Shown here: in pieces, positions 8,474 to 9,805 of the stretch | Layout: each line of letters begins with the position of its first letter | Position numbering within the stretch: position 1 is the first letter of the stretch | NCBI GenBank assembly: GCA_041496745.1 | Contig: JBGQFF010000002.1 | Location: 1-60,015 of the forward strand | DNA: 60,015 nucleotides | Reading direction: 5' to 3' | Source: Gammaproteobacteria bacterium | GTDB lineage: Bacteria > Pseudomonadota > Gammaproteobacteria > Burkholderiales > SG8-39 | The notes under the pieces: generated by a model | Told to the model about the DNA's origin: nothing | What the model saw: the letters and a program-made list of their open reading frames with translations, nothing else | Database searches by the model: none | Made by a program: the position numbers and the translations under genes

Positions 8474-9805
8474 CTATCCCCGCGCCGCAAGGCGCATGTT
8501 GGCCTGCATCAGCCGCTCGATCAACACGCGCATGAAGGCCTTGTTGAAACCCACCTGGCAGGCGTCGGTCGCGGCACGCAGCGCCGCCGCCTTGATCTCG
8601 ATCACCGTGATCTCGTCGTTGGCGGTGATGGTGGTGGTGCGCCGCTCGACGCGGTCGGTGAAATACAGGATCTCGCCGAAGCAGCCCCCCGGCTTGATGG
8701 TGTTCAGCTGCGTGCCCGAGAGCGTGACGCTGACCTCGCCGGAGAGCAGCAGGTAGAAGCTGTCGCCGTGGTCGCCCTCGCGCATGATCACGGTACCGGC
8801 GGGAATCTTCTTCCAGCTGCCGGTGCGCACCACTTCCCACAGGGCGACGTCGCCGAAGCCCTCGAAGAACGCGGTGTGGCGCAGCTCGTTGAACTTCTCC
8901 GAGTCCGACAGCGACTCGCCCACCAGGCGCAGGGCGGTGAAGGCCTGGCTCAGGTCCTTGCCGAAATCGAGCCAGGAGCGGAAGCGCTGCGCCGGGTCCT
9001 TGCTCATCGCCGTCATCACGATCTGGTCGAGCAGCGACGGCAGATCCGGGCGCAGCGTGGCGGGCCGCGGCGGCACGGTGTTGAGGATTGCGTAGGTCAG
9101 CCCGGCCTGGGTGGAGGCCTGGAACGGCAGCCGCCCGGTGAGCAGGCGGTACATGGTGACGCCCAGCGAGTAGATGTCGGTCTGGTGCGTCAGTTGCTCC
9201 ATGCGGATCTGCTCGGGCGACATGTAGGCGGGCGAGCCGACGCCGGTGATCTGCGTGGTCTCGTGCCCGAGGCGCTGCTGGAACGAGGCGCCGAAGTCGC
9301 TCACTTTGGTCTCGCCAGCGGCCGACAGCAGGATATTGCCGGGCTTGATGTCGCGGTGGATCACGCCGTGCTGGAAGGCGTATTCCAGCGCGCGGATGCA
9401 TTTGAAGATGATCTCCACCACCTTGGACAGCGGCAGCAGGCTGGTGACGTCCGAGTGCGCGTCCAGAGTCGTGCCGGCGACGTACTCCATCACCAGGTAG
9501 CTGTGGTCGGGCTCGGCCACCGCGTCGAGGATGTCGACGATGTGCGGGTGGTTGAGCTTGCCCGCGAGCGAGGCTTCCGCGAGGAAGGCCTTGTGCATCA
9601 TGCGCTCGGTGTGCGGGTCGGCGAGCTGGTCGAACAGGAACACCTTGATCGCCACCTCGCGGTCGGCGAACGGGTCGCGTGCGAGGTACACGTGGCTGGT
9701 GGCGCCGCGGCCGATCTCGCGCAGGATCGGGTACTTGCCGAGCTGCGTCTGCGGCTCGAAGCGCGCGCCCGCGGCGCCCCGCGTGCCGCCGGTAGCCTGC
9801 GTCAC
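8474..9805 (-). CDS. Hanks-type Ser/Thr protein kinase fused to a C-terminal cyclic-nucleotide-binding domain
   Basis: This is the C-terminal 443 codons of the composite track ORF 8474..14854. Kinase motifs: GRGATSHVY (G-loop), EVAIKVF, HRDIKPGNILL, VSDFGAS, GSPAYMSPE. The C-terminus FFEGF...IMREGDHGDSFYLLLSGEV...GGCFGEILYF...ERRTTTITA resembles a cNMP-binding beta-barrel with a phosphate-binding cassette. GTG at 9805 overlaps the chpA TGA (GTGA). Confidence 0.85.
   Translation of the reverse strand: MTQATGGTRGAAGARFEPQTQLGKYPILREIGRGATSHVYLARDPFADREVAIKVFLFDQLADPHTERMMHKAFLAEASLAGKLNHPHIVDILDAVAEPDHSYLVMEYVAGTTLDAHSDVTSLLPLSKVVEIIFKCIRALEYAFQHGVIHRDIKPGNILLSAAGETKVSDFGASFQQRLGHETTQITGVGSPAYMSPEQIRMEQLTHQTDIYSLGVTMYRLLTGRLPFQASTQAGLTYAILNTVPPRPATLRPDLPSLLDQIVMTAMSKDPAQRFRSWLDFGKDLSQAFTALRLVGESLSDSEKFNELRHTAFFEGFGDVALWEVVRTGSWKKIPAGTVIMREGDHGDSFYLLLSGEVSVTLSGTQLNTIKPGGCFGEILYFTDRVERRTTTITANDEITVIEIKAAALRAATDACQVGFNKAFMRVLIERLMQANMRLAARG

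Follow-up and report, generated by a model that had tools for sequence, protein, structure and literature searches.

Known bacterial effectors of cAMP and cGMP are mainly transcription factors (CRP, Vfr), together with a few fusions that attach a cyclic-nucleotide-binding (CNB) domain to an enzyme or a channel: Bd1971 (CNB-EAL), XC_0249 (CNB-GGDEF), Mt-Pat (CNB-acetyltransferase) and the channels MloK1 and SthK. Here we analyse a 60,015-nucleotide (nt) stretch from the genome of an uncultured soil betaproteobacterium (Burkholderiales; assembly GCA_041496745.1, contig JBGQFF010000002.1, positions 1 to 60,015; hereafter the window), in which the gene directly after chpA in a type IV pilus chemosensory (Pil-Chp) operon encodes a soluble Hanks-type Ser/Thr kinase (STK) with a C-terminal CNB domain (STK-CNB). 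The protein resembles the fusions above in that a canonical CNB domain would gate an attached output domain, and differs from them in that this output is a Hanks kinase.

In Pseudomonas, Pil-Chp signals through the cyclase CyaB and cAMP to Vfr (PMC12632253). The known cAMP reader of P. aeruginosa is a transcription factor, whereas the candidate reader at our locus is a kinase. The window keeps the order pilG, pilH, pilI, pilJ, chpA and the domain content of the P. aeruginosa cluster (pilGHIJK-chpABCDE), and also encodes FimV; unlike that cluster, it has neither pilK nor chpB there, and chpA is followed by the STK-CNB gene instead of chpB-E. A 2025 review of Pil-Chp (PMC12632253) mentions no Ser/Thr kinase component, and a 2025 preprint presenting an atlas of bacterial STKs mentions neither cyclic nucleoside monophosphates (cNMPs) nor pili. 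Our literature search found no paper describing a Hanks kinase in this position, in agreement with an earlier note on this DNA, which had thought the chpA-kinase arrangement undescribed for Pil-Chp systems. Bacterial CNB-kinase fusions were listed in passing by Kannan et al. in 2007, under 'Other_bacterial ... kinases' (PMC2246266); beyond that catalogue entry, the search returned nothing on characterised fusions of this kind, and no characterised bacterial cNMP-regulated Ser/Thr kinase. What is new is the extension of a Pil-Chp operon by a cNMP-sensor Hanks kinase; the domain architecture is already known, being common and catalogued. The STK-CNB gene is an accessory Pil-Chp gene of one clade, not a recognised component of the system. 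We read its product as a cNMP-sensing Hanks kinase that belongs to the Pil-Chp operon and has pilus-related targets, and put the probability of this combined reading at about 0.5.

The kinase gene was established to start at a GTG codon (9805-9803) that overlaps the TGA stop of chpA (9804-9802) by 4 nt. Homology to relatives and gene calls of the kinase both begin at this GTG, the gene calls on three public contigs of metagenome-assembled genomes (MAGs) that encode an identical protein share the start and the 4-nt overlap, and the next in-frame ATG, GTG or TTG occurs only at codon 39, within the glycine-rich loop. Because of this overlap, the kinase gene most likely shares a transcript with chpA and has its translation coupled to that of ChpA. 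The five genes from pilG to chpA lie on one strand and keep the same order in L081, L082 and related loci, gaps between genes of the operon range from -4 to 57 nt, and a consensus scan of positions 7900-10400 found no promoter- or terminator-like sites. We consider the kinase gene to be the last enzyme-coding gene of the pilG-pilH-pilI-pilJ-chpA operon, and its membership of that operon to be very probable.

The kinase frame is itself open for 2126 codons (8474..14854, minus strand), across all of chpA. This is an artefact of high-GC DNA (69% GC) and could mislead annotation based on open reading frames (ORFs). The reverse case was seen in L049 and L056, where the chpA frame extends approximately 200 nt into the kinase gene.

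The N-terminal half of the protein matched Pfam Pkinase (PF00069) over residues 27-274, with an E-value of 3.3e-50 and 171.3 bits against a cut-off of 31.7. The set of catalytic residues is complete (G32xG34, K54, E77, H150-R151-D152, N157, D170-F171-G172, P197-E198, D210 and R274), and among 77 relatives (36-94% identity) each of them is either invariant or kept in no fewer than 90%. Two threonines of the activation loop, T183 and T184, are invariant among close homologues (alignment A1). The closest structures found with Foldseek for this domain were Mycobacterium tuberculosis PknB and Staphylococcus aureus Stk1, at 30-34% identity; E-values of about 1e-23 and target-normalised template-modelling (TM) scores of 0.85-0.89 against PknB structures point to a bilobal kinase fold in the model. 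The best NCBIfam match was likewise PknB_PASTA_kin (266 bits, below its cut-off of 450). None of the 50 best Foldseek matches was a PKA or PKG structure, eukaryotic kinases (Aurora, CaMKII, one AGC kinase and PKCeta) appeared only from rank 24 down, and no solved chain in the search spanned both the kinase and the CNB domain. Judged from its sequence, the PknB-like Hanks Ser/Thr kinase that forms the N-terminal domain is competent for catalysis.

The C-terminal module matched Pfam cNMP_binding (PF00027) over residues 332-412 (E=6.5e-16; 58.5 bits, cut-off 27.5), and we hold the assignment of the two domains to be practically certain. An AlphaFold2 (AF2) run on an alignment of 24 sequences at least 79% identical gave an unusable model, with a per-residue confidence (pLDDT) of 52.8; adding representatives of 36-60% identity, for an alignment of 77 sequences, led to a confident one (mean pLDDT 89.5, predicted TM score 0.83, pLDDT of about 90 in the CNB region). 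In this model a helical linker of approximately 25-45 residues separates the two domains, and the CNB domain is predicted to begin with helices at residues 301-309 and 319-328. The barrel (330-405) would contain seven strands of three or more residues and a two-residue strand at about 375-376 that precedes the phosphate-binding cassette, itself predicted to hold a short helix (379-382); a predicted alphaB (406-410) and a long alphaC (414-442, 29 residues) follow. The modelled domain shows the canonical CNB topology, an eight-stranded beta-barrel flanked by alphaA and by alphaB/alphaC.

The residues expected to contact the ligand are also kept. The cassette, FGEILYFTDRVERRTTTITA, aligns to the PKG cassette FGERALLYD--EPRSATIIA, with an insertion of two residues relative to PKA and PKG. 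Among 77 family members, its positions are conserved as G373 (72/77), G377 (77/77), E378 (74/77), R389 (70/77) and T/S390 (57/77), and the Gly-Glu...Arg-Thr cassette is both intact and under purifying selection. The glycine of the beta2-beta3 loop, which co-evolves with the cassette arginine in genuine cNMP binders (PMC2246266), is present as well (G347, in EGDHGDSFY, at least 90% conserved among close homologues in alignment A1). The sequences that match the domain best are the CNB domains of PKG (Plasmodium), PKA-R (yeast and mammalian), Epac and MloK1. A further match was a Pycsar CNB effector that binds cUMP (8jsj, E=1.7e-8). This last match, the two-residue insertion in the cassette and the lack of a cyclase among the window ORFs scanned would fit a domain that binds some other ligand, or whose main function is dimerisation or autoinhibition, like that of the CooA, FNR and CprK relatives; many bacterial CNB-fold domains do bind other ligands (PMC2246266). 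Yet the residues of canonical binders (G-E, R-[ST] and the beta2-beta3 Gly) are retained in 70-77 of 77 family members and the best matches are genuine cNMP-binding domains, and we consider this explanation improbable. That the CNB domain binds a cNMP is likely.

Most of what the earlier note had said of the protein is borne out by these data. The GTG start overlapping the chpA stop agrees with both sequence and public gene calls; the motifs it quoted (GRGATSHVY, VAIK, HRDIKPGN, DFG, SPAYMSPE and CFGEILYF...ERRTTTITA) are all found in the translation; its complete Hanks core is matched by the Pfam score and by a full residue set conserved in the 77 relatives; and its CNB barrel with the cassette Gly-Glu and Arg is matched by the Pfam score, the 77-member conservation and the predicted topology. 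The description of the protein as PKG-like holds for its logic and fails as a statement of kinship: by fold and by profile the closest kinases are PknB and Stk1, and there is a single CNB domain, at the C-terminus. The protein is an analogue of PKA and PKG, not a homologue. It shares with them a CNB domain that has the canonical Gly-Glu...Arg-Thr/Ser cassette, is best matched in sequence by the CNB domains of PKG and PKA-R, and is coupled to a Ser/Thr kinase. It differs from them in having a PknB-like kinase where theirs is of the AGC type, one CNB domain where they have two to four, and a C-terminal CNB where theirs is N-terminal or on a separate R subunit; no pseudosubstrate is recognisable, and reading the kinase-CNB linker revealed no evident one of the RRxS/A type. 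With PknB, Stk1 and PrkC it has in common the catalytic fold, all catalytic motifs and a Thr-rich activation loop, but it lacks their transmembrane segment and PASTA sensor and carries a cytoplasmic CNB domain as sensor instead.

The earlier note had also suggested asking how often such a gene follows chpA with an overlapping start. We scanned one genome per GTDB species and obtained 80 loci, all from MAGs or single-amplified genomes (SAGs). In 54 of these 80 species-level genomes, all of them uncultured Burkholderiales, chpA lies directly upstream of the kinase orthologue and pilJ precedes chpA. In 52 of the 54 ChpA-linked loci the two genes overlap or stand no more than 54 nt apart: the 4-nt xTGA overlap occurs in at least 27 loci (probably in 31), and overlaps of 14-20 nt in 12. 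The exceptions are L077, where the 3.7 kb in between contain nothing but small unrelated genes on the opposite strand, and L078, with 0.35 kb. The linked loci keep the junction at ChpA identities to the window of 45-85%; in the distant ones ChpA is 45-60% and the kinase 67-78% identical. What follows the kinase depends on the lineage, and includes a small ORF with hemH/hrcA/nadK, an etfB-etfA-acyl-CoA dehydrogenase set, or genes for an ADP-forming acyl-CoA synthetase-like protein, an ABC-type binding protein or a lactonase. Since downstream genes vary in this way, the conserved feature is the chpA-kinase junction and not general synteny. Directly after the kinase, three ChpA-linked loci (L057, L061 and L068) encode a further CNB protein, which stands alone and has 126-133 amino acids (aa); the one of L057 (approximately 4690-5070) matched Pfam cNMP_binding with E=2.8e-17 and has the cassette GEMALVSTAPRSATVVA. 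By its sequence, it represents a second gene for a cNMP sensor that the operon has recruited. We conclude that the Pil-Chp linkage of the kinase is real and maintained, yet confined to one clade.

These contexts also bear on the possibility that the protein is a kinase of anti-phage defence (PD-T4-6 or MADS type) whose gene came to lie after chpA by chance. PADLOC models of PD-T4-6 do match the protein, with E-values down to 2.9e-74, and NCBIfam MAD6 matches it in part. However, the matches are confined to the generic kinase domain (residues 19-292), MAD6 reaches 159.8 bits against a cut-off of 460, in dozens of species the gene stands in a core, syntenic part of the chromosome that lacks defence or mobile genes in its vicinity, and its inheritance within the motility operon is stable and vertical. 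The PADLOC matches are generic kinase-domain matches, and we rejected the defence reading as exceedingly improbable.

A number of observations weigh against our combined reading, and several of them would suit a general cNMP-responsive stress or housekeeping kinase, for which the tail of the pil-chp operon is a lineage-specific relocation that gives co-expression without pathway wiring. In 26 of the 80 loci the kinase is unlinked to chpA. Twenty-five unlinked loci form one clade, approximately 73-81% identical, in which the kinase is transcribed divergently from clpB (for example in L026, 4190-8724); usp, a Na+/H+ exchanger gene and moeA usually come after the kinase. The nearest outgroup (60% identity, cluster P0121/P0272; L086) also adjoins clpB, again divergently. 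Neighbour-joining (NJ) trees placed the clpB-linked clade inside a ChpA-linked grade, and this nesting together with the clpB-linked outgroup would fit a relocation in either direction, from chpA to clpB or the reverse. The clpB/usp context may point to a stress-related role of the family. One genome (VBBY01) carries two STK-CNB copies, one after chpA (L034) and an unlinked, divergent one (L059) that adjoins neither chpA nor clpB.

More distant members, of 38-55% identity, stand in unrelated contexts, several of them housekeeping: a 38% relative with ribD-ribE-ribBA-ribH-nusB-thiL-pgpA, a 45% relative beside ffh/tag, a 49% relative in a uvrD ... rhodanese-tusA-valS context and another, also of 49%, beside argH, and 50-54% relatives in the order M48 peptidase-kinase-tusA. 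The whole family is therefore not dedicated to Pil-Chp. To the same side belong the heat-shock genes around the operon of the window (grpE/dnaK/dnaJ upstream, hrcA downstream) and the higher conservation of the kinase relative to ChpA, for instance 74% against 54% in L054. Against a general kinase speak the 52 of 54 linked loci in which the gene still overlaps chpA or follows it within 54 nt despite varied downstream genes and ChpA identities as low as 45%, and the additional stand-alone CNB gene that joined the same operon in three loci. We consider a general kinase possible though doubtful.

The other unfavourable points concern partners and precedent. Among the window ORFs scanned there are no genes for a cyclase, a phosphodiesterase or a CRP/Vfr protein, and the operon has no FHA or PP2C partner genes. 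The choice between cAMP and cGMP cannot be deduced from the sequence. No cultured carrier of the kinase-CNB family was found, the named matches all being MAGs or SAGs of Burkholderiales or 'Betaproteobacteria', and the literature search found no experimental study of any family member. On the favourable side, we count the junction that persists despite ChpA divergence and changing downstream genes, the CNB gene that follows the kinase in three ChpA-linked loci, and the FimV protein encoded in the same window. Taken by itself, a role of the kinase specific to Pil-Chp has in our view slightly less than an even chance. The proposal that the kinase is wired directly into the chemosensory operon hence stands for one clade (54/80) and does not extend to the clpB-linked clade, the 60% outgroup or the distant members found elsewhere.

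In L087, L090, L091 and one further place, relatives of 49-54% identity share a conserved neighbourhood that comprises an M48/TPR peptidase gene, the kinase gene, tusA and valS. The MAGs with this M48/tusA context carry soxAXYZ and heterodisulfide-reductase-like genes.

The family itself is large. The best 120 homologues listed are all at least 79% identical, share the same architecture and are named only 'serine/threonine protein kinase'. At E<=1e-10 there were 7995 candidates, many of them probably matched over the kinase domain alone; approximately 70 of the best 150 clusters at 50% identity have 420-450 aa, align end to end and are 36-60% identical. A profile search added at least 120 more members, of approximately 48-55% identity, in Burkholderiales or 'Betaproteobacteria' MAGs. 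A kinase with a C-terminal CNB domain, which had been called unusual for bacteria, is not: there is a large family of proteins of approximately 430 aa, and the catalogue of Kannan et al. (PMC2246266) already contains such fusions.

The features of the locus are collected in Table 1.

Table 1. Features of the STK-CNB gene and of the Pil-Chp operon in the window.
Feature	Position	Strand	Description and basis
STK-CNB gene	8474..9805	-	soluble Hanks-type Ser/Thr kinase with C-terminal cyclic-nucleotide-binding domain; translates to 443 aa plus stop
GTGA junction	9802..9805	-	kinase GTG over chpA TGA
Kinase catalytic domain, aa 27-274	8984..9727	-	Pfam Pkinase, motifs, fold
CNB module, aa ~301-442	8480..8905	-	AF2 secondary structure (predicted) and sequence matches
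Phosphate-binding cassette GGCFGEILYFTDRVERRTTTITA, aa 373-395	8621..8689	-	translation, 77-member conservation
chpA (pilL)	9802..14799	-	CheA-type histidine kinase, 1665 aa; Pfam and partial NCBIfam CheA matches
pilJ	14808..16931	-	methyl-accepting chemotaxis protein; Pfam PilJ N-terminal domain E=2.3e-14, MCPsignal E=4.7e-41
pilI (CheW-like)	16989..17498	-	Pfam CheW; start per public gene calls, 169 aa in L081, L082
pilH (single-domain response regulator)	17498..17863	-	Pfam Response_reg E=3.6e-31
pilG (single-domain response regulator)	17889..18290	-	Pfam Response_reg E=1.4e-26; first operon gene
74-aa ORF	8240..8464	-	signal peptide, Lys/Ala-rich AVERAGKA-like repeats; starts 9 nt past the kinase stop

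The seven-gene operon is bounded by divergent grpE/dnaK/dnaJ on the pilG side and by convergent hemH/hrcA on the other. Between pilG (by grpE) and the 74-aa ORF (by hemH) the cluster contains no gene for CheR (pilK) or CheB (chpB). The operon probably ends with the 74-aa ORF, which in the window overlaps the convergent end of hemH; gene calls include it in L081-L083, and homologues occupy the same position in 11 window-like loci. It matched no family above cut-off, the sole match being a sub-threshold one to Moricin. ChpA comprises three histidine phosphotransfer (Hpt) stretches, HATPase_c, CheW and a C-terminal REC domain (Pfam), with HTLKGS motifs at residues ~662 and ~984. Ser/Thr-type Hpt domains were not found in the ChpA of the window, which has only His-type HTLKG motifs and degenerate Hpt-like segments. 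The idea that such Ser/Thr-Hpt domains, known from P. aeruginosa ChpA, could be substrates of the kinase consequently loses its footing here, as no obvious Ser/Thr-Hpt motif of the HTLKG type is present.

Outside the operon, the window encodes a polar landmark protein of the FimV/HubP type (40044..42662, minus strand; FimV_N, FimV_core and FimV_Cterm), and the gene order around it, asd-fimV-truA-trpFBA, is the usual one. The organism thus possesses the polar hub that in Pseudomonas is linked to Pil-Chp/cAMP signalling. The single Metallophos protein of the window was considered as CpdA and rejected, being LpxH. A very strong match to Pfam 'NAD-GH' (PF10712) at 18849..21101 (minus strand) runs antisense to dnaK (19014-21017, plus strand; HSP70 E=1.8e-264), and was rejected as a gene: it is a shadow-ORF family match.

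If the combined reading is right, the kinase would work as follows. A 3',5'-cyclic nucleotide would bind the CNB cassette; the likeliest one is cAMP, since in Pseudomonas it is CyaB and cAMP that Pil-Chp drives (PMC12632253). Binding would shift the alphaB/alphaC hinge-lid, and control of the kinase would thereby be relieved or imposed, either by release of an intramolecular block or by a C-helix-mediated dimerisation that allows trans-autophosphorylation at T183/T184. The kinase would then phosphorylate Ser/Thr residues of its targets, in the ChpA-linked clade most likely components of Pil-Chp or of the type IV pilus. The result would be a post-translational cNMP read-out, or a feedback, beside the route from Pil-Chp through the cyclase and cAMP to Vfr. 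In its strongest form, the proposal is that in a large clade of Burkholderiales, uncultured and from soil and freshwater, the Pil-Chp system gained a cNMP-gated Hanks kinase dedicated to it, made stoichiometrically with ChpA by translational coupling, that turns surface-sensing cAMP or cGMP into Ser/Thr phosphorylation of the chemosensory system or the pilus motor; we regard this version as tentative and rather unlikely.

The kinase-CNB family offers a compact, soluble candidate of approximately 430 aa with intact catalytic and ligand-binding signatures, and its position after chpA in 54 species supplies a built-in pathway hypothesis. If the kinase were pathway-agnostic, it would be another uncharacterised signalling fusion whose position is specific to a lineage. 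Were both cNMP gating and a substrate related to the pilus shown, second-messenger surface sensing would have a fast post-translational branch, and a logic like that of PKA and PKG would have arisen independently on a PknB-type scaffold. And if the kinase is dedicated to Pil-Chp, it would be the first bacterial effector of the PKA/PKG type with a defined pathway, and cNMPs would control type IV pili independently of a transcription factor.

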